Origin: a virus
Lineage: Duplodnaviria > Heunggongvirae > Uroviricota > Caudoviricetes
Length of the DNA: 24,900 bases
Strand: one strand, 5' to 3'
Virus record (IMG/VR): IMGVR_UViG_2713896899_000006
Coordinates: 1 to 24,900 of that record
Numbering within the stretch: position 1 is the first letter of the stretch; each line of letters starts with the position of its first letter. The translations under genes were made by a program, and so were the position numbers. The notes below the pieces were generated by a model that searched no databases, had not been told where the DNA came from, and saw nothing but the letters and a program-made list of their open reading frames with translations. Below, one piece after another: positions 1,210 to 12,624 of the stretch.

Positions 1210-1764
1210 TCAATTATCTAAAATTGTGCTAAACCTTTTGATTACCATTAAGAACGTTATAACAGTGATAAAAAAGGATGTATAGGCTAAAAAGCTAACA
1301 ATATATGCAGGTGCGCGAAAATACCATTTCATTAAATCCACTGCATTGTCAGGCAGGAAATATATTATCACTGAAAATATAACCAATACTATTGAAGTTA
1401 ATATTGCATAAGCGACGTTGTGGCATAACTGCTCATATATGGTTTTGTTAGTGTTTAATGATATCAATTTGTCTCGGGATTTGTGTCCTTCAATTATGTC
1501 TGATATCTTAGTAATGGTTTTTTGTTTTTGTTCATAAATCATTATTACTGCACTCATTAATAGTGCTGTTGTAATAGCCCCGAAGTTAACGAAGACGGAA
1601 GCAATTGCCGGTTTCATTATTCCGTATGTCCAGCACAGAACGAAAGAAAGAGATAGCGGAACAATAAAATGTACGATAATGTCGCTCATCAACATTGTTC
1701 CACGCTGATCTGACATTGTTTTGTAGTGTTTTATTATTACACCCAGCACATTTATTTTATTCAT
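1210..1764 (-). CDS. integral membrane protein, 184 aa, about four predicted TM helices; downstream gene of the AT-rich antisense cassette (candidate effector)
   Basis: Four hydrophobic stretches read by eye (IIVHFIVPLSLSFVLCWTYGI; AIASVFVNFGAITTALLMSAVIMIY; VAYAILTSIVLVIFSVIIYFL; YIVSFLAYTSFFITVITFLMVI). Start ATG overlaps upstream stop as ATGA (1761-1764); AGGGG Shine-Dalgarno upstream on the minus strand. Visibly AT-rich codon usage unlike neighbours. Confidence 0.7.
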   Translation of the reverse strand: MNKINVLGVIIKHYKTMSDQRGTMLMSDIIVHFIVPLSLSFVLCWTYGIMKPAIASVFVNFGAITTALLMSAVIMIYEQKQKTITKISDIIEGHKSRDKLISLNTNKTIYEQLCHNVAYAILTSIVLVIFSVIIYFLPDNAVDLMKWYFRAPAYIVSFLAYTSFFITVITFLMVIKRFSTILDN

Positions 1765-2693
1765 ATGATCACCCCTTTGTTTCCGCTATGCAGTTCTAAC
1801 AATATATCATTAGAAAGGTTTTTTATCGTGTCATGAAGTGCTGTTAGATCAGGTATGCCTGTTAATGGGTCGATTTTTAGATCATTATCATCTAACTCTG
1901 CGGAAATTCCTTTTTTTAGTATGGTATCATAATTGAAAACGACAGTCCGACTGCCGAGCTGTAAGCTTACTTTTATTGCATCACATTTATCTTCAATAAT
2001 CTCAATGATGTTTCCTATATTCTTGTTTCTTAAATCCCTGAAACTTCCGAACATGCCATCGTTTGCTTTTATTATTAAGTCTGTCTTGATGTTTGTTTTG
2101 TTTTGACCAAAGGAATCAGCAATGTCTTTTGGTGCTTTATATCCTTGAGCCTTAATTTGTTTTAATTCGGAATTGAGAATATATTGAGGGATTTTCTTAT
2201 GATGTAATGGATTGATTCTTGCTTCGAGTTGAAATTTGTTTTTTAGATATTCAGTGATAGAATCAGAAAGGACACCTCGAGCAGAAATATTATCGCAAGA
2301 ATGGAATGCAATAATTCCTTCTTCAAGGGTGTCTGGTAGGTATATTAAAATATAACGTTCTTTGAGTGTTACATCATAAGCAGTTGTCCTGTAGTGGATT
2401 TTTTTGAGTTTTACATCCTTTATTTCACTACTTTCTCCATATTTCCCAACTTTTATATAACCATATATAATTTTCTTTGTGTTATCAAAGTGAAGTTTAG
2501 CGTGTTGTTCTAGAGATATTTTAGTTTTGGATACGCCAAACTCGATGGGGGTGTTTTTATATAGAGTAAAATAATCAACAAAAAGTTCATATGCCGTTTT
2601 TTTATTACTTAAACCCAATTCATTAAGCTTTTTGCTGGCTCGACTGCCTTTATGGGTCAATACGCGGAATGAATAGAAATTAACGCTGTGCAT
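1761..2693 (-). CDS. soluble protein of unknown function, about 310 aa; upstream gene of the AT-rich antisense cassette (candidate sensor/enzyme)
   Basis: Long minus-strand ORF (track 1761..2711). I place the start at the ATG at 2693 because AAGGA lies 6 nt upstream on the minus strand, whereas the ATG at 2711 has no RBS. Lysine/isoleucine-rich and AT-rich. No catalytic motif recognised. Confidence 0.65.
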   Translation of the reverse strand: MHSVNFYSFRVLTHKGSRASKKLNELGLSNKKTAYELFVDYFTLYKNTPIEFGVSKTKISLEQHAKLHFDNTKKIIYGYIKVGKYGESSEIKDVKLKKIHYRTTAYDVTLKERYILIYLPDTLEEGIIAFHSCDNISARGVLSDSITEYLKNKFQLEARINPLHHKKIPQYILNSELKQIKAQGYKAPKDIADSFGQNKTNIKTDLIIKANDGMFGSFRDLRNKNIGNIIEIIEDKCDAIKVSLQLGSRTVVFNYDTILKKGISAELDDNDLKIDPLTGIPDLTALHDTIKNLSNDILLELHSGNKGVII

Positions 2694-3119
2694 GAAAGTC
2701 CTTTTGAACATATAGGAATATACTAGAACATAAATAGATGCAATGTATAAAGGAAAAGCTACCGCAGGGCGAACTCACCCACCGATAGCTCTTAACTGGT
2801 TGTTTGTAAAAGATAATACATAAATAGGGGGCTGTGTAAAGAGGTAAGCATCGTCAGGGCAGGGGAGATGTGTTAGGCGATATTGGTAAAATTTACGTTG
2901 AGGATAAAAACGGTTTGCGTGAAAAGAAGAGTTAAGTAAAAATCGCTGCGGGTGCTTGAGGCTATCTGTCTCAGGCATGAACACCAAAAGGCAGATAGAG
3001 AAAAGCCCCAGCTAACATTACGCGTCTTGCAGGACGCTTAACATTAATCTGAGGCTCAATCCATGCTGAACACATGTAGGTTAGCCTCTTACGTGCCGAA
3101 AGGCAAGGAGAAGCAGGCT
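2694..3119. promoter_or_regulatory. divergent control region between the antisense cassette and hok; contains the structured hok leader (inverted repeats) and presumably promoters for both units
   Basis: About 425 bp without a convincing ORF; inverted repeats ctatctg...cagatag (about 2963-3000) and gaggct...agcctc (about 3050-3088) just upstream of hok, consistent with the folded leader of hok-family mRNAs. Promoters not individually resolved. Confidence 0.35.
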
Positions 3120-4375: not shown

Positions 4376-4649
4376 AGCGGCAAAAGGTCAGATGTGTACA
4401 GTCAGAATTCCTGGCTACTGCAATCACAATCCCGAAACATCCGTGCTGGCGCATTACCGACTGGCGGGAACGTGCGGAACAGCGATAAAGCCACACGATA
4501 TGCAGGCAGCGATTGCCTGTAGCTCGTGCCACGATTTAATCGACGGGCGGGTAAAAACCAGTGATTACACCAAAGAAGAATTGCGCCTGATGCATGCAGA
4601 AGGTGTTTTTCGCACACAAGAAATCTGGAGAAAGGAAGGTTATTTATGA
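4359..4649 (+). CDS. DUF1364-like (YbcO-like) putative Cys-rich nuclease, 96 aa
   Basis: ATG at 4359 with GGAG upstream; Cys-rich product (CTVRIPGYCNHNPE...CSSCHDLIDGR) resembling YbcO-family proteins; the track ORF 4185..4649 starts at an upstream out-of-context codon; stop overlaps the Q start (ATGA). Confidence 0.65.
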   Translation: MVDLRKAAKGQMCTVRIPGYCNHNPETSVLAHYRLAGTCGTAIKPHDMQAAIACSSCHDLIDGRVKTSDYTKEELRLMHAEGVFRTQEIWRKEGYL

Positions 4650-5188
4650 TTTACCCAACAAATACAGGCAAAAGCGGGGAACACCTTCGTCTCACCACGC
4701 TGGAAAGTGTCTGGATTCAGGGAAAACTGCGTATGTGGGGGCGCTGGTCGTATATTGGCGGCGGCAGGTCAGGGAATATGTTCAACCAGTTGCTGGCGTC
4801 AAAAAAATTGACGAAAACAGCAATCAATGAAGCCCTGCGCAGGATGAAAAAAGCAGGAATAGAGAAGCCGGAGCTGGAAGCATTTTTACGTGAGATGATC
4901 AACGGGAAGCAAAAGAGCTGGCTGGCGCATTGTACTGATGCAGAGGCGTTATGTATTGATCGGGTTATAAGTGAGGTGCTGACAGAACATCCGGGATTGA
5001 TTAGCGTCCTTCGACAACGGTATGAGGGGCGGGGGATGAGTAAGCTGAAAATGGCACAACAGTTAAATGAGTATCGCCCTGGCTGGAGCTTGAAAACTTG
5101 CAGAAATCGCATTGACGCATGGTTGAGTGTTGCTGAGCACATTCTGTATATACCAATGAAATTAGCGTTATGCGGAGAAAGCCAATAA
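4646..5188 (+). CDS. Q: phage late-gene antitermination protein Q (Phage_antitermQ-like), 180 aa
   Basis: AAGGAAGG RBS; position immediately upstream of a promoter/terminator region and the lysis cassette; sequence resembles Q proteins of enterobacterial lambdoid prophages (recall, not search). Confidence 0.65.
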   Translation: MIYPTNTGKSGEHLRLTTLESVWIQGKLRMWGRWSYIGGGRSGNMFNQLLASKKLTKTAINEALRRMKKAGIEKPELEAFLREMINGKQKSWLAHCTDAEALCIDRVISEVLTEHPGLISVLRQRYEGRGMSKLKMAQQLNEYRPGWSLKTCRNRIDAWLSVAEHILYIPMKLALCGESQ

Positions 5189-5194
5189 AAAAGT

Positions 5195-5230
5195 TATTGC
5201 ATTTTTGCCAATAAACTGATTCAATTCAGC
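5195..5230 (+). promoter_or_regulatory. candidate late promoter PR' (and qut-like region) downstream of Q
   Basis: TTGCAT (5197-5202), 17-bp spacer, TTCAAT (5220-5225): an imperfect sigma70-like pair in the position where lambdoid PR' lies. Weak assignment. Confidence 0.3.
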
Positions 5231-5285
5231 TACGCTTCGCAAAGCTGTATCGCGAGGCGAACCAAGTGCAATTGAACTTTAATAG

Positions 5286-5312
5286 AACCCGCCACCGAGC
5301 GGGTTTTGTTGT
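5286..5312 (+). terminator. rho-independent terminator (tR'-like) about 60-80 nt downstream of the candidate PR'
   Basis: Hairpin aacccgc-caccga-gcgggtt followed by ttgttgtttc. Confidence 0.55.
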
Positions 5313-5538
5313 TTCTGACGGATAGAAAAATGAAATAGCTAAATAAAAAGAATTCATTGGATGCCATATTTTGGCAACGTGACGACAGCGTTAATCTGGT
5401 CGGGCTCCCATGGCGACGTAGTGAAGGAGAGGAAGCGTAAAGCATCACTGAGTTACGGTTGGCACCCGGTTTAACGCGTAAGTAGCCTGATAAAGAGATA
5501 GTGCACCGCGGCACTAACAGCGGCAACGATTAACTGAC

Positions 5539-5563
5539 CTCGGCATTTGCCGGGGTTTTTTTA
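5539..5563 (+). terminator. second rho-independent terminator in the Q-to-holin intergenic region
   Basis: Hairpin ctcggc-attt-gccggg (one G-U pair) followed by ttttttt. Confidence 0.55.
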
Positions 5564-5686
5564 TTTAAGGCCGCAGACAGGCCCATTTAGTGCAACGCCT
5601 TTCTCCGTTTCCGCTCCCGGAATATTCGGGGATTTTTTATTCCCTCAATTTGCACCCGCGATATGTGCGAGGTGAGAGATGATGAA

Positions 5687-6022
5687 ATGCCTCATAACCC
5701 AAATACCTGGCCGGACTGGCTGGAGTTGTTTCAGAGCTGGTGGCGTGGAGACACCCCGCTGGGCGCAGTGATTATGTCGATCGTTATGGCTGGTTTGCGC
5801 ATCGCCTATTTTGGCGGTGGTGGGGGCTGGAAACGAAAAACGCTTGAGATTTTGCTCTGTGGTGCCCTGACGTTGACCTTTGCATCCGCGCTTGAGTATG
5901 TCGGATGGCCTAAATCACTTTCTGTTGCCATTGGTGGTGGGGTGGGGCTGATTGGTGTTGATGCTATTCGTGGTGCGGCAATGAGGGTCATCGGTAACAA
6001 GTTTGGTGCTCATAAGGAGTAA
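5687..6022 (+). CDS. holin (three predicted TM segments), about 111 aa
   Basis: Immediately upstream of the endolysin; hydrophobic segments LGAVIMSIVMAGLRIAYFGG, LEILLCGALTLTFASALEYVGW, SLSVAIGGGVGLIGVDAI; GAGGTGAG upstream of the ATG at 5687 (alternative in-frame ATG at 5663 lacks an RBS). Confidence 0.6.
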   Translation: MPHNPNTWPDWLELFQSWWRGDTPLGAVIMSIVMAGLRIAYFGGGGGWKRKTLEILLCGALTLTFASALEYVGWPKSLSVAIGGGVGLIGVDAIRGAAMRVIGNKFGAHKE

Positions 6023-6025
6023 TTA

Positions 6026-6502
6026 ATGCAGACACTGAATTCCCAGCGTAAAGCTTTCCTTGATATGGTGGCATGGTCAGAAGGAACGGATAACGGACGG
6101 CAGAAAACCAGAAATCACGGTTATGATGTTATTGTCGGTGGCGAACTGTTCACTGATTACTCCGATCACCCCCGCAAACTTGTCACGCTAAATCCGAAAC
6201 TCAAATCAACAGCCGCCGGACGTTACCAGCTTCTTTCACGCTGGTGGGATGCCTACCGCAAGCAACTTGGCCTGAAAGATTTTTCGCCAGAAAGCCAGGA
6301 CGCTGTAGCGCTGCAGCAGATTAAAGAGCGTGGCGCATTACCGATGATTGACCGCGGCGATATTCGTCAGGCAATCGACCGTTGCAGCAATATCTGGGCT
6401 TCGTTGCCGGGCGCTGGTTACGGTCAGTATGAACATAGAATCGGTGACCTGATTGCCCGATTTAAAGAAGCTGGTGGGGTGGTAAATGAAGCTGAGATAT
6501 AA
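6026..6502 (+). CDS. R: endolysin, lambda R-type lytic transglycosylase, 158 aa
   Basis: Near-identical by recall to lambda R (NSQRKAFLDMVAWSEGTDNGRQKTRNHGYDVIVGGELFTDYSDHPRK...); AAGGAG RBS. Confidence 0.9.
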   Translation: MQTLNSQRKAFLDMVAWSEGTDNGRQKTRNHGYDVIVGGELFTDYSDHPRKLVTLNPKLKSTAAGRYQLLSRWWDAYRKQLGLKDFSPESQDAVALQQIKERGALPMIDRGDIRQAIDRCSNIWASLPGAGYGQYEHRIGDLIARFKEAGGVVNEAEI

Positions 6503-6878
6503 GCTGGTTATTGTTGCCTTCTTTGTTACCGTCATCGGTTCTTTTATCTGGTATGCCGGGCATTACTACAGCAAATATCAACACGAAAAGGAGCGCGCTG
6601 ATGAGGCTGTACGAAATGCTGAATCAGCAACAGCCATTACCCGTAACGTCCTGCAATCACTGCAAATCATCAACACAGTTATAGAGGCTAACCAGCATGC
6701 AAAACAGCAGATCGCACTGGAGTCACAGAGAATTCAGAAAGAGATCAAAGTGGCTGTTGCGGATGATGATTGCGCTGTTCGTATCGTTCCTTCTGGCGCA
6801 GTTAAGCGGTTGCACGAATACGCGAACGGTATACGTGTCGGTGCCGGTGGTTCCGTTACCAGCCAGTCTGACGGCTGA
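6486..6878 (+). CDS. Rz: i-spanin Rz (N-terminal TM anchor plus periplasmic coiled-coil), 130 aa
   Basis: Starts within the 3' end of R; N-terminal TM helix LVIVAFFVTVIGSFIWYAG; position and architecture typical of Rz. Confidence 0.8.
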   Translation: MKLRYKLVIVAFFVTVIGSFIWYAGHYYSKYQHEKERADEAVRNAESATAITRNVLQSLQIINTVIEANQHAKQQIALESQRIQKEIKVAVADDDCAVRIVPSGAVKRLHEYANGIRVGAGGSVTSQSDG

Positions 6879-7041
6879 AACACCCCAGCCAGATTTACCC
6901 GACCCGTTTACGTGGGGGGCAAGCCTTAACCTGAATGTTGCATTGTTGTCAGCGTTAGCACAGTGCAACAGGGATAAGGCTGATATCAGGACTTTTGAGA
7001 AAAACAGGGCAGCACAAACCAATGGCACGATTAAACGTTGA
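6763..7041 (+). CDS. Rz1: o-spanin Rz1 (lipoprotein), overlapping and extending beyond Rz in the +1 frame, about 92 aa precursor
   Basis: Internal ATG-ATG at 6763 in the alternative frame of Rz gives MMIALFVSFLLAQLSGC with lipobox L-S-G-C, followed by a proline-rich segment (PVVPLPASLTAETPQPDLPDP) typical of Rz1. Confidence 0.6.
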   Translation: MMIALFVSFLLAQLSGCTNTRTVYVSVPVVPLPASLTAETPQPDLPDPFTWGASLNLNVALLSALAQCNRDKADIRTFEKNRAAQTNGTIKR

Positions 7042-7326
7042 AGTTATCCCACCAGACAGCGAAACGATGAACGGGATTTTTTGCAGTGATTGAATGTAAA
7101 TATGTGCATCAGCCGATGACGCCAAAAGTTATCGATGAAATGCAACGCGAAGCAGCGCGTCTTGTACTGCGAGCGACAAATACAAAGGTTGCGTTCGTTC
7201 TGGACTGACATTACAGAAGCTCCTTTGATAAGGGGCTTCGATAATGTCAAAGCTCGTTATCTGCACCCGCCGCGCACCCAGCGCACTGGCCGATAGCGGG
7301 CTTTTTTATTAATAAAGCGAGGCTGT

Positions 7327-8106
7327 ATGAGCGAGAAATTGAAGATCGTCTATCGCCCGTTACAAGAACTGTCTCCGTATGCACACAATGCTAGGACACA
7401 CAGCCCTGAGCAGGTAACGCAACTGGTAGAAAGCATTAAGCAATTTGGCTGGACTAATCCGGTGCTGATTGATGAAAAGGGCGAAGTTATTGCGGGCCAC
7501 GGTCGCGTTATGGCGGCTGAAGTGCTCAAAATGGATTTCGTTCCGGTCATCGTTCTGTCTGGTCTGACGGATGATCAGAAAAAGGCGTACCGTCTGGCAG
7601 ATAATCGCCTGCCGATGAATGCTGGCTGGGATGAAGATCTGTTACGGATGGAGCTGTCGGACCTAATTAATGCTGATTTTGATGTCTCCCTGACAGGCTT
7701 CAGCCCGATAGAAATTGATGAACTGTTGACGGATATTTTGCCTGGTACAGGAAATGAGGAGGAGCCGTATACGACGAAAATTGATACGCCTGTTTATGAG
7801 CCGTCAGGCGATAAACCGGATATCTGTGAACTGTACGACGATACGAAAACTCAGGAGCTGATCAGCCGGATACGTTCGGCGTCCCTTAATCCTGATATTG
7901 AGAAATTCCTCCTGTGCGCGGCAGAACGTCACACGGTGTTTAATTTCAGCAGAATCGCGGACTATTACGCTCACGCCCCCGCTGAAATTCAGAGCCTTTT
8001 TGAGGAATCGGCTCTGGTGATCATTGATTATCAGCAGGCAATTGAAAATGGGTTTGTCAGGATGACGCAGCGCATGGTGGAGATCATGCATGGCGAGGAG
8101 GAGTAA
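7327..8106 (+). CDS. ParB-like nuclease (ParB N-terminal/Srx-like) domain protein, 259 aa
   Basis: N-terminal region (YRPLQELSPYAHNARTH...IAGHGR...YRLADN) resembles the ParB N-terminal nuclease-like domain common in phage genomes; no methyltransferase motifs seen; GAGG RBS. Confidence 0.6.
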   Translation: MSEKLKIVYRPLQELSPYAHNARTHSPEQVTQLVESIKQFGWTNPVLIDEKGEVIAGHGRVMAAEVLKMDFVPVIVLSGLTDDQKKAYRLADNRLPMNAGWDEDLLRMELSDLINADFDVSLTGFSPIEIDELLTDILPGTGNEEEPYTTKIDTPVYEPSGDKPDICELYDDTKTQELISRIRSASLNPDIEKFLLCAAERHTVFNFSRIADYYAHAPAEIQSLFEESALVIIDYQQAIENGFVRMTQRMVEIMHGEEE

Positions 8107-8107
8107 T

Positions 8108-9040
8108 ATGCGTGATGATTTTTGCGCCTTTATTCTGACTCACGGGCGACCGGACAAAGTTCTGACTTACCGGACGTTGCGTCGTGCTGGCTATACCGGG
8201 AAAATTTTTATCGTTGTTGATGATGAAGATAAAACCCGGCATCAGTACGTAGCAGAATTTGGTGAACAGGTGCTGGTGTTTTCCAAAGCCGATATCGCCA
8301 GTCGTTTTGACGAAGCCGACAACTTTGGCGATCGACGTTCAATCTTTTATGCCAGGAATGCCTGTTTGGGCCTGGCAAAAAAGGTTGGGTGTAAATACTA
8401 CATCCAGCTTGATGACGACTATCACGAGTTTCAGTTTCGGGTAGATCGCAACTATGACCAGGCTTATTTTCCGATAAGGAAACTGGACTCGATCCTTTCT
8501 GAAATGCTGGCGTATTACGAATCAATTCCTGCGCTTTCCATCGCTATGGCGCAGGGGGGGGATTTTCTTGGTGATAATGGTGGTCATGCTGCATGGGTGA
8601 AACGCAAAGCAATGAACAGCTTTATTTGTTCTGTTGACCGACCATTCTCATTTATGGGGCGTATTAACGAGGATGTGAATACATACACGAATCTCGGTCG
8701 TCGTGGTGAATTGTTTTTGACGATTGGCGCTGTCCAGTTAGGGCAGAAGCAAACGCAGAAAAACAGCGGCGGAATGACCGAACTGTATCTGGATTCCGGC
8801 ACCTACGTTAAAAGTTTTTACTCCGTCATGTATGCGCCGTCGTGCGTAAAAATCTCACTGATGGGCGCCAGCCATAAACGCATTCACCATCAGGTCACCT
8901 GGAACAACGCTGCAGTAAAAATCCTTCACGAAAAATACAGGAAGAAGACACCCTGCATATCAATGGGGGTGATAAATGATTCCGTATTCGAAAGTCGAGT
9001 CTCTGGCAGCGTGCCGGATGACTGCACAACAAATCGCTGA
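8108..9040 (+). CDS. hypothetical protein with GT-A glycosyltransferase-like signatures, 310 aa
   Basis: ATG at 8108 directly after GAGGAGGAG; N-terminus FILTHGRPDKVL resembles the start of GT2 enzymes (IPTYNRPELL pattern); acidic IVVDDED and a DDD (DxD-like) motif in YIQLDDDY. Fold assignment is inference only. Confidence 0.45.
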   Translation: MRDDFCAFILTHGRPDKVLTYRTLRRAGYTGKIFIVVDDEDKTRHQYVAEFGEQVLVFSKADIASRFDEADNFGDRRSIFYARNACLGLAKKVGCKYYIQLDDDYHEFQFRVDRNYDQAYFPIRKLDSILSEMLAYYESIPALSIAMAQGGDFLGDNGGHAAWVKRKAMNSFICSVDRPFSFMGRINEDVNTYTNLGRRGELFLTIGAVQLGQKQTQKNSGGMTELYLDSGTYVKSFYSVMYAPSCVKISLMGASHKRIHHQVTWNNAAVKILHEKYRKKTPCISMGVINDSVFESRVSGSVPDDCTTNR

Positions 9041-9227
9041 CGTTCTGGATGTTGATCTGAACAGACTGAAAGAAAATCGGGAAGCAATGACAAATTTTTA
9101 TGCGTCCATCCGTAAGGGCAGAGCGAAAGGTGAAGCCGAGCTACGGGCGGCATTGTTTAAGCTTGCCAGAAAAGGGGATGCCTTTGCTCTGCGTGCATTA
9201 CTCAGGGTGGATAAAAATCAGGACTAA
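8976..9227 (+). CDS. small helix-turn-helix protein, 83 aa (possible packaging accessory/DNA-binding protein)
   Basis: ATG at 8976 with GGGGGTGA upstream; overlaps the 3' end of the preceding gene by 65 nt; HTH-like segment MTAQQIADVLDVDLNRL; ends 4 nt before the small terminase. Confidence 0.4.
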   Translation: MIPYSKVESLAACRMTAQQIADVLDVDLNRLKENREAMTNFYASIRKGRAKGEAELRAALFKLARKGDAFALRALLRVDKNQD

Positions 9228-9230
9228 CTG

Positions 9231-10334
9231 ATGAGAAGACCGGACTGGGGGGCGTTGCAGCAGGAATATATTGCTGAATACACCCGCTCCGGTGTATCTC
9301 CGGTGGCGTGGTGTGAAGCAAAGGGACTGAATTACGCAACAGCCCGTCGTTACATCAAGAAACCTCCGAAAAATGCGCAGACAGAAGTGCGCAAAACTGC
9401 GCAAAAAAGTGCGCGAAAAAAAACTGCGCAGACTGCGCAGACTGCGCAAAAGCAAAACGGAAAATCTCAGAAAAAAAAGCCTGTATCCGATGCACTCCTG
9501 ATTGAGGGGGACACGGAAGAAATTTCGTTCTGCCCCGATGAATTCGGTATTTCTGACCAGCAGGCAAAATTCGCCATGTTGGTTGCTCAGGGGAAAAAGC
9601 CGACAGAGGCATACCGCCTGGCTGGTTACGAGGGGCAAGGTGCGACAGCAAACAGCAATGCCAGTCGTATGCTTAGAAATGCCAGGGTTTTTCGTGCCAT
9701 CAGCTACTTTCGCAATCATTACCAGAAACGCTATACCGCAGACCTGGATTTACTGGTGAGTCAGTTGATGGCCATCGTGCAGGCTGATCCCAATCAGCTT
9801 GCGCAATTTCGCCGTGTTAACTGTCGCTATTGCTGGGGGGAGAATCACCTCTATCAGTGGCGCGATATAGCAGAATTTGACAGGGCTGCCGCGCAGGCAT
9901 CCAAAGATGGTAAACCAGAACCTGAATATGGTGGCCTCGGTTTCGTTGATAGCGCCATACCAAATCCAGACTGTCCGAAATGCGGTGGAGAAGGTACAGG
10001 TCAGCTTTATATGGCTGATACCACTTTGCTTGATGGAAATGCGCGGCAATTGTATGCAGGAGCAAAGCTCGGAAAATTCGGCGTTGAGATCCTGCTGGAG
10101 AATAAAGCTGCCGCCCGGCGTGAATTATTGCGTTTGCTTTCCGCTGGCGGGGCATTATGTGCAGATAAGCGACTACAGGAACTGGAAATTGAACGGCGCA
10201 GAATGGAAAACCAGAAACTGCGCAAAGAGATCGAAACGGTGGAGGGTAATGAACATCCCCAGCCTGTGGCGATCAATATTAATGTAGTTGATGCCAGAGT
10301 GAGGAGTGATGAAGATGATCTCTCCGACGCTTAA
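9231..10334 (+). CDS. terminase small subunit (Terminase_2-like core) with N-terminal HTH, low-complexity K/Q/T/A linker and C-terminal CxxC...CxxC region, 367 aa
   Basis: Segment QQAKFAMLVAQGKKPTEAYRLAGYEGQGATANSNASRMLRNARVFRAI matches the Terminase_2 small-subunit pattern from memory; directly upstream of and overlapping the large terminase. Confidence 0.7.
   Translation: MRRPDWGALQQEYIAEYTRSGVSPVAWCEAKGLNYATARRYIKKPPKNAQTEVRKTAQKSARKKTAQTAQTAQKQNGKSQKKKPVSDALLIEGDTEEISFCPDEFGISDQQAKFAMLVAQGKKPTEAYRLAGYEGQGATANSNASRMLRNARVFRAISYFRNHYQKRYTADLDLLVSQLMAIVQADPNQLAQFRRVNCRYCWGENHLYQWRDIAEFDRAAAQASKDGKPEPEYGGLGFVDSAIPNPDCPKCGGEGTGQLYMADTTLLDGNARQLYAGAKLGKFGVEILLENKAAARRELLRLLSAGGALCADKRLQELEIERRRMENQKLRKEIETVEGNEHPQPVAININVVDARVRSDEDDLSDA
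9374..9448. repeat. cluster of six exact TGCGCA palindromic hexamers plus one TGCGCG variant within 75 bp, inside the terS coding sequence
   Basis: TGCGCA at 9374, 9388, 9398, 9425, 9434, 9443 and TGCGCG at 9410, spaced 9-15 bp; encodes the TAQTAQTAQ low-complexity linker. Confidence 0.8.
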
Positions 10335-12624
10335 TGTGCCTCAGGCGCGATTTCTTTCTATGCCTCATAAATTTAAAGCCTATGTTGCTGGTTTTGGTTG
10401 CCTGAGGGGAAGTACGCCTGTGGTTACAGAGAATGGGATTCTACCCATTCAGGAAATAACTCGACCAATGCGCGTTTTATCTTGGTCGGATGAGAATAAT
10501 CGATTTGAGCTTTCGCTAAGTGGTGGTGCGTACCCAAAAGGTGTGGCGAATCTATACCGAGTAGTGACGCAGCGAGGAGAATTTGTAGCAAGCGGACATC
10601 ACCGCGTTTTTTGCGCTGACGGTAGCTATCGATCTGTGGATAGTCTGGACGAATCGGTGAAGGTATTTGCATCTTCGCAAAACCTTCTTCTGACCAGTTT
10701 GGCCGCCGTCCCGAAATCGTTGCACGCAGGTGATCCACGTTTGAATCAAAAACTCGCAGATTACTTGGGTTGTTATGCAGATGAAGCCCGTCGATATGGT
10801 CAACAACTTCTGATGGCAGCAGATAACGCCCCAGCTTCTTTTCAGCGATCAAACGATGTTCAAACATCATGCCTGTTCTGCGCATATATGGATGGTCAGC
10901 AGGCGCTGGAGCAACGGCATATCCATCCAGATCAACAATTCGACCACCACGAAAGCTGGGGTTCAACTCACCCTTTCTGGCGCCACGGGAGAGCCGGTTG
11001 GTGTTGTGAATTCGGAGAATATTTTGAACGTGCTTTTCTGTGCAACCAACTTCCGCCGCGATCTCTGCCGACGTACGGTGACCATCAGCAAGAGCGAGGA
11101 TTCTGTCCTTCGCACTTTCTCGAGGGGCAGGCTTCTGGCGTTGTTTCAGCGTTAACCCATAACGAGATATGCAACGATAAACATGACTACGGTCACAACC
11201 TGCCAGAGAAGCAACTTCTGAAACGGTACGTTCTGGATGTGCTAAATCACAAATTAAATGGTCAAGAGGCGTCAAAACCAAACGCCTTAATCGAAACCTG
11301 CAACATATTGAGTGTAACACTGTTGCAGGAGGCCGAGCCATATTATGACCTCCAGGTATTGGATAATAACTGCTACGTAACTGCTGATGGGACGATTCAT
11401 CACAATAGCGGTAAAACATGGGTTGGGTGTGGTGGCATATGTAAGGGGATTTGGGAGCATCCGGGTATCAATCAGGGATATTTTGCGCCTACATATCCAC
11501 AAATTCGCGATATTTTTTATCCTACAGTTGAAGAAGTTGCTGCCGACTGGGGGCTAAATGTAAAAATTAACGAGGGAAATAAAGAAGTTCATTTTTATTA
11601 CGGACGTCAGTATCGGGGAACCACTATCTGCAGATCGATGGAGAAGCCACAAACGATCGTCGGTTTCAAAATTGGTAATGCGCTGGTGGATGAACTGGAC
11701 ATTTTGCCGAAGGAAAAAGCCAGAACAGCGTGGCGCAAGATAATTGCGCGTATGCGTTATAAGGTTGATGGACTTCGTAACGGTATTGACGTTACAACCA
11801 CGCCGGAAGGATTCAAATTTGTCTACGAACAGTTTGTTAAAGCCGTACGTGAAAAAACAGAGCTGGCCTCACTGTATGGCCTGGTACAGGCATCTACTTT
11901 CGATAATGAAAAGAATTTGCCAGCAGATTACATTCCCTCGCTCCTTGAGTCATATCCTCCAGAGCTGATTAAAGCCTATCTTCGGGGACAGTTTACTAAC
12001 CTGACAAGTGGTACTGTTTACCATCAGTTTGACCGAAAACTGAATAATTGCGAAGAAGAGGAACAGCCAGGTGAGCCGATATATATCGGGATGGATTTTA
12101 ACGTCGGAAAAATGGCTGGAGTCGTTCATGTGTTACGTTTTGGGCTTCCATGCGCAGTAACTGAAATCATTAACGCTTACGATACACCAGATATGATCCG
12201 TATTATTAAAGAGCGCTTCTGGTTATATGACGGGAATGATTATCGGAAAGTAAGGGAAATTTATATTTATCCTGATGCATCCGGGGATTCCAGAAAATCA
12301 AATAACGCAAGTGCGACGGATATTGCTCAGCTTAAACAGGCTGGTTTTAACGTTGTTGTAAACAGTTCGAACCCGCCAGTAAAAGATCGCGTTAACTCAA
12401 TGAATGCAATGTTCTGCAATGCCAATGGTGAGCGTCGCTATAAAGTTAATGTGAAGCGTTGTCCGGTATATGCCGAATCTCTGGAGCAACAGGTCTGGGA
12501 TGATAAGGGTGAGCCTGATAAAAAATCTGGTAACGATCACCCGAATGATGCCGGAGGTTATTTTATTGTTAAGCAATTCCCTATTGTCAAACCGACCGGA
12601 AGAGTTACATCACTTCGGATTTAA
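10306..12624 (+). CDS. terminase large subunit precursor (772 aa) containing a 336-aa intein inserted in the Walker A P-loop
   Basis: Exteins join as ...AYVAGFG|SGKTWVGCGG... (Walker A GFGSGKT) with Walker B-like ALVDELD downstream; the rest of the protein has the layout expected of a terminase ATPase/nuclease. Confidence 0.85.
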   Translation: MMKMISPTLNVPQARFLSMPHKFKAYVAGFGCLRGSTPVVTENGILPIQEITRPMRVLSWSDENNRFELSLSGGAYPKGVANLYRVVTQRGEFVASGHHRVFCADGSYRSVDSLDESVKVFASSQNLLLTSLAAVPKSLHAGDPRLNQKLADYLGCYADEARRYGQQLLMAADNAPASFQRSNDVQTSCLFCAYMDGQQALEQRHIHPDQQFDHHESWGSTHPFWRHGRAGWCCEFGEYFERAFLCNQLPPRSLPTYGDHQQERGFCPSHFLEGQASGVVSALTHNEICNDKHDYGHNLPEKQLLKRYVLDVLNHKLNGQEASKPNALIETCNILSVTLLQEAEPYYDLQVLDNNCYVTADGTIHHNSGKTWVGCGGICKGIWEHPGINQGYFAPTYPQIRDIFYPTVEEVAADWGLNVKINEGNKEVHFYYGRQYRGTTICRSMEKPQTIVGFKIGNALVDELDILPKEKARTAWRKIIARMRYKVDGLRNGIDVTTTPEGFKFVYEQFVKAVREKTELASLYGLVQASTFDNEKNLPADYIPSLLESYPPELIKAYLRGQFTNLTSGTVYHQFDRKLNNCEEEEQPGEPIYIGMDFNVGKMAGVVHVLRFGLPCAVTEIINAYDTPDMIRIIKERFWLYDGNDYRKVREIYIYPDASGDSRKSNNASATDIAQLKQAGFNVVVNSSNPPVKDRVNSMNAMFCNANGERRYKVNVKRCPVYAESLEQQVWDDKGEPDKKSGNDHPNDAGGYFIVKQFPIVKPTGRVTSLRI
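10399..11406 (+). other. intein (protein-splicing element) within terL, 336 aa
   Basis: Starts with Cys in block-A-like CLRGSTPVVTENG; block-B-like TxxH (ASGHHRVF) about 65 residues in; ends with block F/G-like YYDLQVLDNNCYVTADGTIHHN followed by +1 Ser; insertion exactly splits the P-loop. Confidence 0.8.
10424..11341 (-). CDS. HNH (HNH_3-like) homing endonuclease with two HTH-like motifs, 305 aa, encoded antisense within the terL intein
   Basis: Minus-strand ORF (track 10424..11419) with HRLIAEKKLGRYLLPSEVVDHIDGLHLHNNPSNLRVFDSNVDHL, a strong match to the HNH_3 signature; I verified the reverse-complement translation of 10730-10810 by hand. GGAGG lies 7 nt upstream of the ATG at 11341 on the minus strand. 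Confidence 0.7.
   Translation of the reverse strand: MARPPATVLHSICCRFRLRRLVLTPLDHLICDLAHPERTVSEVASLAGCDRSHVYRCISRYGLTLKQRQKPAPRESAKDRILALADGHRTSAEIAAEVGCTEKHVQNILRIHNTNRLSRGARKGELNPSFRGGRIVDLDGYAVAPAPADHPYMRRTGMMFEHRLIAEKKLGRYLLPSEVVDHIDGLHLHNNPSNLRVFDSNVDHLRATISGRRPNWSEEGFAKMQIPSPIRPDYPQIDSYRQRKKRGDVRLLQILLAASLLGIDSPHLLGTHHHLAKAQIDYSHPTKIKRALVELFPEWVESHSL

Follow-up and report, generated by a model that had tools for sequence, protein, structure and literature searches.

The window analysed here, i.e. the whole 24,900-nucleotide (nt) stretch of IMG/VR virus record IMGVR_UViG_2713896899_000006, is the late region of a lambdoid, Rac-like prophage, and contains between its lysis cassette and its terminase genes two adjoining plus-strand open reading frames (ORFs), here ORF-A and ORF-B, that form one near-obligate module across phyla. 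ORF-A encodes a YnaK-type protein whose N-terminal domain is assigned to the ParB/Srx fold and whose C-terminal domain (C-domain) accompanies ORF-B, a glycosyltransferase (GT) of the TAGT family. An earlier reading of the sequence (the original prediction) had singled out two adjoining ORFs in this place, and both their position and their coordinates are confirmed. We propose, tentatively and at a little short of an even chance, that the pair constitutes a late-expressed, ParB-assisted DNA glycosylation module by which a sugar would be added before packaging. The features of the pair are as follows.

7327-8106, plus strand: ORF-A, YnaK-type protein of predicted ParB/Srx fold, 259 amino acids (aa), isoelectric point (pI) 4.5, no helix-turn-helix (HTH)
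7327-7731, plus strand: predicted N-terminal ParB/Srx (CTPase-fold) domain of ORF-A, aa 1-135
7768-7818, plus strand: linker motif of ORF-A, Y148-[ST]149-x-K151-x3-P155-x-Y157-x-P...P164, predicted disordered
7819-8106, plus strand: C-terminal 'TAGT-partner' domain of ORF-A (with the linker motif, aa ~143-252), predicted all-alpha
8093-8101, plus strand: GAGGAGGAG, putative ribosome-binding site of ORF-B as read from the sequence, inside the last codons of ORF-A
8108-9040, plus strand: ORF-B, GT-A glycosyltransferase assigned to the TAGT family, 310 aa, pI 8.7

The pairing is reciprocal. At TAGT-anchored loci drawn from genomes and viral contigs, a ParB-type gene lies directly upstream in 106 of 108 cases, the exceptions being one locus with an extra TAGT in between and one with a truncated TAGT; among viral contigs anchored on the C-domain, a same-strand TAGT lies downstream in 80 of 80, either abutting or with one inserted gene between. 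The original prediction suggested that the two genes could together be a module for DNA modification or anti-restriction, or a packaging accessory; this is supported, their pairing being borne out by these counts. A Rosetta-stone fusion (P0365), in which TAGT'::ParB_N::C-domain are joined in a single 534-aa protein, occurs on three independent contigs, where it carries a second TAGT and precedes the canonical TAGT, TerL and portal genes, and a stand-alone C-domain, a 139-aa protein with 53% identity, lies directly before the TAGT in the Vibrio jumbo phage pv27. Over 77 loci, distances between C-domains correlate with distances between TAGTs (Spearman 0.32, a value reached in none of 500 permutations), a covariation that is modest and partly due to shared ancestry, and those between N-domains do so weakly (Spearman 0.11, reached in 54 of 500). 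The charges of the two proteins are opposite family-wide, the partner being acidic (pI 4.2-5.4; 4.52 in ORF-A) and the TAGT basic (pI ~8.5-9.4). Taken together, the synteny, the stand-alone C-domain, the fusion, the covariation and the opposite charges make a physical complex of the two proteins, formed through the C-domain, the simplest reading.

Both ORFs are real genes under strong purifying selection, and not chance ORFs: dN/dS against E. ruysiae orthologues is 0.11 for ORF-A and 0.06 for ORF-B, and against more distant orthologues synonymous sites are saturated with pN only 0.12-0.25. A GAGG stands 7 nt 5' of the ORF-A ATG. The mechanical start of ORF-B is ATG 8090; since all homologues share an N-terminus beginning MRDDF, the real start is taken to be ATG 8108, which lies 1 nt past the ORF-A stop (TAA 8104-8106) and 6 nt past GAGGAGGAG, the strong ribosome-binding site that had been remarked on for the second gene. 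Translation of the two ORFs is predicted to be coupled, with the ribosome-binding site of the second inside the end of the first.

ORF-B is, as judged from sequence, a member of the TAGT (TET-Associated Glycosyltransferase) family with its catalytic motifs intact. It matches Pfam PF20691 at 122.5 bits (cut-off 27.5; E 2.8e-35), residues 8-222 aligning to profile positions 4-205 of 205, and all of its listed homologues carry the same family; Pfam gives no other match and PADLOC none. It also matches phrog_842 (E 1.9e-99), from which the name beta-glucosyl-HMC-alpha-glucosyltransferase is transferred. The hGRP, VVDDED and DDD signatures noticed in the original prediction are real and invariant in the family: ORF-B contains HGRP (R14, nt 8147-8149), VVDDED (D38-D41), DDD (D102-D104, nt 8411-8419) and NED (N187-D189, nt 8666-8674), and in 16 sequences, down to 59% identity, R14, D102-D103-D104 and N187-E188 are invariant and D189 nearly so. 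These residues follow the R...DDD...ED active-site pattern of phage GT-A DNA glycosyltransferases (bioRxiv 10.1101/2023.12.21.572611), with Val, not Tyr or Phe, after ED. AlphaFold2 (AF2) models of both proteins were built on shallow alignments of 14-16 sequences; that of ORF-B has a confident GT-A fold in its N-terminal half, with a predicted local distance difference test (pLDDT) score of 85-95 over most of residues 1-150, which together with the PF20691 match upholds the earlier call of a GT-A-like glycosyltransferase. The best Foldseek matches of this model are viral TAGT-domain proteins (E 3.8e-20, TM-score 0.63-0.70), and those in the PDB are generic GT-A enzymes, including SpsA and glycogenin. 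The C-terminal ~22 aa are an Escherichia-specific extension (310 vs ~288 aa) that overlaps the next ORF.

The N-terminal domain of ORF-A is assigned, from profiles and structural models, to the ParB/Srx (CTPase) fold. ORF-A matches phrog_620 over its full length (E 4.8e-87), Pfam ParB_N (PF02195) scores 25.1 bits on it, slightly below the gathering score of 26.3, nearly all of its homologues carry a precomputed PF02195 match, and RefSeq labels its orthologues 'ynaK: ParB/Srx family N-terminal domain-containing protein'. The AF2 model of the domain matches Noc/ParB CTPase-fold structures (Foldseek E 6e-6) and the family profile finds ParB/Spo0J/Noc chains in the PDB at E 1e-4. In the hidden Markov model alignment to ParB/Spo0J chains of the PDB, G57-H-G-R60 (nt 7495-7506) falls on the ParB box II GERR, G57 being kept in 118 and R60 in 99 of 121 family representatives. 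Where partition ParBs have the Glu used to hydrolyse CTP (E93 in the M. xanthus protein; PMC13229309), ORF-A has His. The domain had originally been described as a 'ParB N-terminal nuclease-like domain', of which the ParB fold stands, on phrog_620, Foldseek and the PDB profile, and 'nuclease' falls away as a label without support.

It had also been stated that no methyltransferase is attached, which is correct; Pfam finds no methyltransferase domain in ORF-A, and only its N-terminal part matches ParB-methyltransferase profiles. Yet the closest relatives of that part outside the family are the N-termini of phage adenine DNA methyltransferases, with matches to phrog_498 (E 4e-50, ORF-A residues 3-141 on profile positions 31-171 of 633) and to PADLOC MTase_II (PDLC03229; E 1e-37, residues 10-144 on positions 13-151 of 436), and identities of up to 55.7% by tblastn. 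These methyltransferase N-termini are closer to the ORF-A N-domain than are the N-domains of distant YnaK-TAGT pairs. A known defence-system component was considered for the two genes and rejected, PADLOC yielding just the MTase_II match to the N-domain of ORF-A and nothing for ORF-B.

A standard partition ParB was likewise rejected for ORF-A, with TIGR00180 reaching 34.5 bits against a cut-off of 58.45 in a match limited to residues 11-94; no HTH was detected in ORF-A, and no ParA among the window genes scanned. These results bear on the possibility that the pair is simply two unrelated ordinary genes, i.e. a partition or regulatory ParB beside an envelope GT (for O-antigen, capsule or superinfection exclusion), or the remnants of a decaying TET-GT cluster. 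Prophage GTs often modify surface glycans, E. coli K-12 Rac presumably keeps ynaK without a GT, and some records do annotate a 'chromosome (plasmid) partitioning protein' or a 'transcriptional regulator'; against such an origin stand, besides the failure of TIGR00180 and the missing HTH and ParA, the TAGT as sole Pfam match of ORF-B, the reciprocal, near-100% synteny with its fusion protein, and the strong purifying selection on both genes. The pair is found, moreover, in strictly virulent phages such as c5, for which partition or lysogenic conversion makes no sense. We regard this explanation as barely credible and largely refuted, and the profile searches do not divide the two proteins between unrelated well-characterised families but return a TAGT and a non-partition ParB. 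The K-12 gene ydaY was considered as a TAGT remnant and rejected, as YdaY maps to a tail-region gene. In a Shigella flexneri prophage copy (L001 5102-6008), the ParB-type gene is split into ORFs of 129 aa and 168 aa and the TAGT is intact; the split gene is probably a pseudogene in a decaying prophage.

The conserved constant partner of the TAGT is the C-domain, previously unnamed, and not the ParB domain. At distant TAGT-anchored loci the C-domain gives much stronger matches than the N-domain does (e.g. E 5e-32 vs 2e-4 at L005), and the N-domain is the most divergent of the three, with a mean distance of 0.66 as against 0.49 and 0.48 for the C-domain and the TAGT. The C-domain family comprises 1198 clusters at 50% identity, nearly always at the C-terminus of 250-300-aa proteins, and has invariant R201, H202, Y214, E226, D234 and G242. 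The per-residue conservation profile is biased to the C-domain, its sequences having been collected with that domain, and unbiased support for C-domain conservation comes from the distant-locus E-values and the covariation analysis. When PDB sequences and Pfam were searched with the family profile (E up to 10), the C-domain gave no significant match, only noise and a sub-threshold PF23887. A double-stranded beta-helix dioxygenase is disfavoured for the C-domain because of its all-alpha prediction.

The pair is widespread. Loci with it are assigned, by host or label, among others to Enterobacterales, Thiotrichales, Hyphomonadaceae, Bacteroides, Dysgonomonas, Prosthecochloris and Ignavibacteria, as well as to Lentisphaera, Saccharibacteria, Veillonella, Cellulosilyticum and Virgibacillus; by phylum, the carrying phages extend to Bacteroidota, Chlorobiota, Bacillota, Lentisphaerota, Saccharibacteria and Actinomycetota, among others, at 40-59% identity. 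Cultured phages with the pair include c5, phiLdb and LL-Ku of L. delbrueckii, phi jlb1 of L. gasseri, NTR1 of Nocardia and the haloarchaeal virus HHTV-2, whose TAGT and partner are 42.7% and 42% identical, respectively, to the window proteins. Of 5426 complete E. coli genomes, 1149 have a match to the 2-kb region of the pair (90-95% identity), with at least 80% of the region present in 866, and it is also found in 10 phage records.

In nearly all carriers the pair lies just before terS/terL, whatever the terminase family. Downstream terminases belong to at least four unrelated Pfam families (Terminase_6N 9, Terminase_3 6, GpA_ATPase 3 and TerL_ATPase 1, among 50 downstream neighbour genes). 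In the cos phage c5 the pair forms ORF1-ORF2, directly after cos; in Vibrio phage pv27 it lies amid genes for single-stranded DNA-binding protein, exonuclease, primase and helicase. The cassette also varies, and individual loci contain a radical SAM enzyme (L170), a histidine phosphatase with a cytidylyltransferase (L159), a probable SAM methyltransferase recognised by motif only (L128), an NAD-dependent epimerase/dehydratase with a sugar nucleotidyltransferase (L013), a TAGT::methyltransferase fusion with a second TAGT (L022) or a methyltransferase::ParB fusion (L018). The variants with sugar-donor or glycan-tailoring genes share the layout of known DNA-hypermodification clusters, which have sequential GTs or a GT with an epimerase (10.1101/2023.12.21.572611), and the inserted tailoring genes suggest that the identity of the glycan is under diversifying selection.

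Within the DNA glycosylation that we propose, the catalyst would be the basic GT-A enzyme, i.e. the TAGT, using a nucleotide-sugar via its R...DDD...ED site, and the acidic YnaK-type protein would hold it through the conserved C-domain. The ParB/Srx N-domain, a putative nucleotide-binding domain, would load or activate the TAGT on replicated double-stranded phage DNA, a step suggested because this domain is of the same kind as those in phage DNA methyltransferase fusions and in ParB activators of thymine dioxygenases. Modification would precede packaging by the terminase encoded immediately downstream, and the sugar-marked DNA would resist host nucleases at the next infection; Mu Mom and T-even glucosylation protect phage DNA from host nucleases. 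As no sigma-70-type promoter-like site was found in 5200-9400, i.e. between the Q gene and terS, the pair would most simply belong to the late (Q-dependent) transcript. HTH-less ParB-like proteins activate phage 5mYOX enzymes on double-stranded DNA, ParB176 being needed by 5mYOX176 (PMC13229309), and a 2013 proposal by Aravind and co-workers (Iyer et al., NAR 41:7635), in which the TAGT was defined, is relayed by PMC8256090 and PMC13229309 as holding that ParB proteins direct modification enzymes. In this proposal the complex of the two proteins, the choice of DNA as acceptor, the late timing and the role against restriction are all inferred.

Several observations weigh against it. The P-motif Arg is absent in ~18% of family members, ORF-A is strongly acidic and has no recognisable DNA-binding domain, and the AF2 models are of low confidence for the C-terminal half of ORF-B and for the C-domain of ORF-A. 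No TET_JBP or thymidylate-synthase-like (ThyS) match was found in the window. No source of 5-hydroxymethylcytosine (5hmC) or 5-hydroxymethyluracil (5hmU) is annotated in a complete Rac-type prophage, in the complete 31.8-kb, 50-ORF genome of c5 or in phi jlb1; on two metagenomic phages neither a TET/JBP nor a hydroxymethylase was found up to 10 kb away from the pair, and the Pfam families of 74 upstream neighbours (top 25 of 41 families) include no source of a hydroxymethyl-pyrimidine. The 50 downstream neighbour genes of diverse loci contain no TET/JBP or hydroxymethylase, and no hydroxymethylase is annotated in one 50-kb quarter of the pv27 genome. Dioxygenases were looked for through Pfam matches and annotation, and a divergent 5mYOX can evade PF12851 (PMC13229309). 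Characterised TAGTs and their relatives glycosylate 5hmC or glucosyl-5hmC in phage DNA (PMC13216743, PMC13390438, PMC8256090, bioRxiv 10.1101/2023.12.21.572611), the distant relative JGT has 5hmU in DNA as its acceptor (10.1101/2023.12.21.572611), and GREB1 has Ser/Thr of a protein (PMC7968844), every characterised enzyme of the family using a pre-existing hydroxyl. Canonical DNA bases carry none, so that new chemistry or a hidden acceptor-making activity would be required, and no modified base is reported for pair-carrying phages in the literature searched. No hydroxymethyl-pyrimidine source that would account for the acceptor was found in the genomes and flanks inspected.

The C-domain and the TAGT might together form a self-sufficient DNA-glycosylating machine, free of TET/JBP and hydroxymethylase, in which the conserved C-domain would create or expose the acceptor, or the sugar would go onto a canonical base. 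We consider this quite unlikely; if true, it would amount to new DNA-modification chemistry, present in prophages of roughly one in five complete E. coli genomes and in phages that infect many bacterial phyla or haloarchaea.

The want of a hydroxymethyl-pyrimidine source in any genome or flank inspected speaks for a protein acceptor, with the TAGT catalysing O-glycosylation in the manner of GREB1, which belongs to the same Pfam family and O-GlcNAcylates Thr/Ser of oestrogen receptor alpha (ER-alpha; PMC7968844). The likeliest target would be the partner's own Y148-[ST]149-x-K...Y157 motif, or else a protein of the virion, of packaging or of the host that the partner presents. This motif is the sole invariably co-encoded hydroxyl-bearing element: among the 121 representatives Y148 and Y157 are each kept in all, and Ser/Thr at position 149 and P155 each in 120, within a linker (residues 137-159) where the AF2 pLDDT is below 50. 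GT-A protein or peptide glycosyltransferases are usually co-encoded with their substrate, and the structural neighbours of the TAGT include glycogenin and the glycocin enzymes SunS/ThuS, though as generic GT-A matches. One pair-carrying metagenomic phage, L116 (17837-20316; also L117 8659-11138), has besides ParB-TAGT-TerS-TerL four consecutive GT2-family genes shortly after its major capsid gene, which resemble virion-glycosylation cassettes and could bear on protein glycosylation. Conservation of at least 40% between bacterial and haloarchaeal viruses would, however, demand a universal target, for which the partner alone qualifies because terminase and capsid families differ between carriers. 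YnaK-like proteins, moreover, are not known as virion components, sugar-donor diversification is hard to square with an intracellular regulatory glycoprotein, the Vibrio jumbo phages keep the pair among replication genes, and the N-domain of the partner is of the type that phages fuse to DNA methyltransferases. On balance a protein target appears rather unlikely, though it is the main rival to a DNA target.

The lack of a hydroxyl on the DNA also favours glycosylation of another nucleic acid or of a small molecule, e.g. a tRNA base, a defence second messenger or the nucleotide pool, with the ParB/Srx protein as an NTP-binding or kinase-like subunit. Some ParB/Srx-fold proteins, such as Srx and SerK, are enzymes that use ATP, and proteins of this fold bind various NTPs (PMC12704722); the weaker structural matches of ORF-A include Srx, SerK and SbnI, and the top PDB matches of the TAGT model include sugar nucleotidyltransferases, which have the same Rossmann-like fold. 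The strong Pfam TAGT match, however, spans the DxD glycosyltransferase core, and small-molecule substrates are not known for any family member; Vibrio phages do without the ParB N-domain, whose P-motif Arg is not conserved throughout, and terminase adjacency together with kinship to methyltransferase N-domains point to DNA. Such a substrate seems very improbable.

Comparison with known systems gives partial likenesses to the DNA glycosylation module proposed here. In phage ParB-DNA methyltransferase fusions the N-domain is homologous to ORF-A aa ~3-141; in ORF-A the C-terminal TAGT-partner domain replaces the methyltransferase domain, and the modifying enzyme is a separate polypeptide. Mu Mom is an example of late-expressed, post-replicative modification of temperate phage DNA starting from a canonical base; it is an acyltransferase-fold enzyme with N6-carbamoylmethyl-adenine as its product, and hence unlike the TAGT module. 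Like ORF-A, ParB176 of the ParB176/5mYOX176 pair is an HTH-less protein of ParB fold; it combines a nucleotide-binding domain (putative in ORF-A) and a C-terminal domain with an unstructured linker, and such ParBs are encoded beside a DNA-modifying enzyme, often near a terminase. ParB176 is required for activity on double-stranded DNA, and cognate ParB/5mYOX pairs are specific (PMC13229309). The client of ParB176 is, however, an Fe/2OG dioxygenase, whereas the neighbour of ORF-A is a TAGT and no TET_JBP was found, and the ParB-dependent 5mYOX subclass is linked not to GTs but to kinases, amidotransferases and amino-acid:DNA transferases (PMC13229309).

With the beta-glucosyl-HMC-alpha-glucosyltransferase of T2/T6 and T-even-type TAGTs, ORF-B shares PF20691, a GT-A fold with DxD and its encoding by a phage. 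The T-even enzyme adds a second glucose to alpha-glucosyl-5hmC, which derives from a pathway of dCMP-hydroxymethylase and alpha-GT (PMC13216743); ORF-B, unlike it, is found in a temperate siphovirus with no 5hmC pathway found and has an obligate ParB-type partner. The sequences are also distant, the homologue of T4-like Aeromonas phage 65 being 22.9% identical (E 6e-6) and no T2/T6 homologue passing 1e-5. The metavirome GT-A enzymes of C5-methyltransferase (C5-MT)/5mYOX (TET) clusters have the R...DDD...ED pattern in common with ORF-B, and these clusters, which act post-replicatively, may hold sequential GTs, epimerases, ParB-like genes and terminases (PMC8256090; bioRxiv 10.1101/2023.12.21.572611). 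Their GTs use 5hmC supplied by the adjacent methyltransferase and TET, whereas no 5mYOX, C5-MT or ThyS was found at the ORF-B module; ~65% of GT contigs, without such neighbours, were set aside in the metavirome study as less obviously DNA-related (10.1101/2023.12.21.572611). By profile, fold and motif ORF-B is thus a TAGT, but one for which no TET/JBP association is found. The kinetoplastid base-J glucosyltransferase JGT, a distant GT-A relative of phage DNA GTs (10.1101/2023.12.21.572611), depends on JBP thymine hydroxylases, and JBP was not found at the window locus. Animal GREB1 gives its name to the ORF-B orthologues at NCBI ('GREB1-related protein') and belongs to the same Pfam family; it is a cytoplasmic protein of 1949 aa, modifies the oestrogen receptor by O-GlcNAcylation (PMC7968844), and has neither a ParB partner nor a viral context.

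The remaining features of the late region, in order, are these.

4646-5188: Q antiterminator
5663-7041: holin, lysozyme and Rz/Rz1 (Rz/Rz1 at 6486-7041), upstream of the pair
8976-9227, plus strand: 83-aa TerS-like ORF, downstream of the pair
9231-10334: TerS, downstream of the pair
10306-12624, plus strand: TerL, downstream of the pair
Downstream of TerL: portal, Mu-F-like head protein, P22-type coat and tail genes

Both edges of the pair show further peculiarities. The 58 bp a little 5' of ORF-A (7250-7307), ending GCGGGCTTTTTTATT, are 96.6% identical to Actinobacillus pleuropneumoniae phage vB_Apl-pPE4, which has no match to the query outside this stretch; at the same Rz/ParB-gene junction, Rac-type E. 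coli prophages have trkG inserted. At the other end, the 83-aa ORF overlaps the final 65 nt of ORF-B and matches the middle of the terminase small-subunit family phrog_309 (E 8e-22); loci of Escherichia, Pantoea, Superficieibacter and Serratia keep it between the TAGT and TerS genes, and TerS may be split into two proteins at this locus.

Elsewhere in the window, TerL is interrupted within its Walker A motif by an exact, intein-like insertion of 336 aa (10399-11406, plus strand), with the junctions …AGFG|CLRGSTPVV…GTIHHN|SGKTWVG…; TerL is 98% identical to a 436-aa orthologue outside the insertion, throughout which the sense frame is open. An antisense ORF (10424-11419, minus strand), almost wholly inside the insertion, encodes a 331-aa HTH+HNH_3 endonuclease. 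The insertion DNA occurs in one of the 5426 complete E. coli genomes (strain MEI003, 99.7%), where RefSeq also annotates an antisense HNH endonuclease; an intein with an antisense-encoded homing endonuclease, if that is what the arrangement represents, would be unusual. Two overlapping reverse-strand genes of 184 aa and 316 aa (1210-2711, minus strand) lie in a nin-like region between the replication genes and the DUF1367/YbcO/Q genes. Pfam and PADLOC give no match to either gene, and their orientation and position suggest a moron or defence cassette.

No paper on ynaK function or on the ParB-TAGT pair was found in the literature searched. The genes themselves are already known and common, under the RefSeq names ynaK/ParB-Srx and 'GREB1-related protein'; what that literature did not contain is the near-obligate pairing of a TAGT clade with a specific C-terminal domain, its independence from hydroxymethyl-pyrimidine pathways, or experiments on the pair. 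The known settings of phage DNA glycosylation are the T-even one, where nucleotides are hydroxymethylated before replication, and TET-type clusters, where 5-methylcytosine or T is oxidised after it. A 2026 study counts 'solitary' TAGTs of undefined function in 288 of 753 GT-bearing phage genomes (PMC13216743), and GTs that lack a 5mYOX or ThyS neighbour were left out of consideration in the metavirome work (10.1101/2023.12.21.572611).

One large, very conserved block of these 'solitary' TAGTs is not solitary, but always has a specific partner domain, usually on a ParB-fold protein, immediately upstream of the packaging genes or near them. If the target is a protein, the pair would represent a widespread viral protein-glycosylation system on a DNA-GT scaffold. 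Should it be DNA, an unrecognised DNA modification with new acceptor chemistry would exist in many temperate phages of E. coli, Salmonella, Klebsiella, lactobacilli, Bacteroides and haloarchaea, with consequences for the evasion of restriction and CRISPR, for type IV restriction, for phage therapy and for the calling of modified bases in sequencing data.

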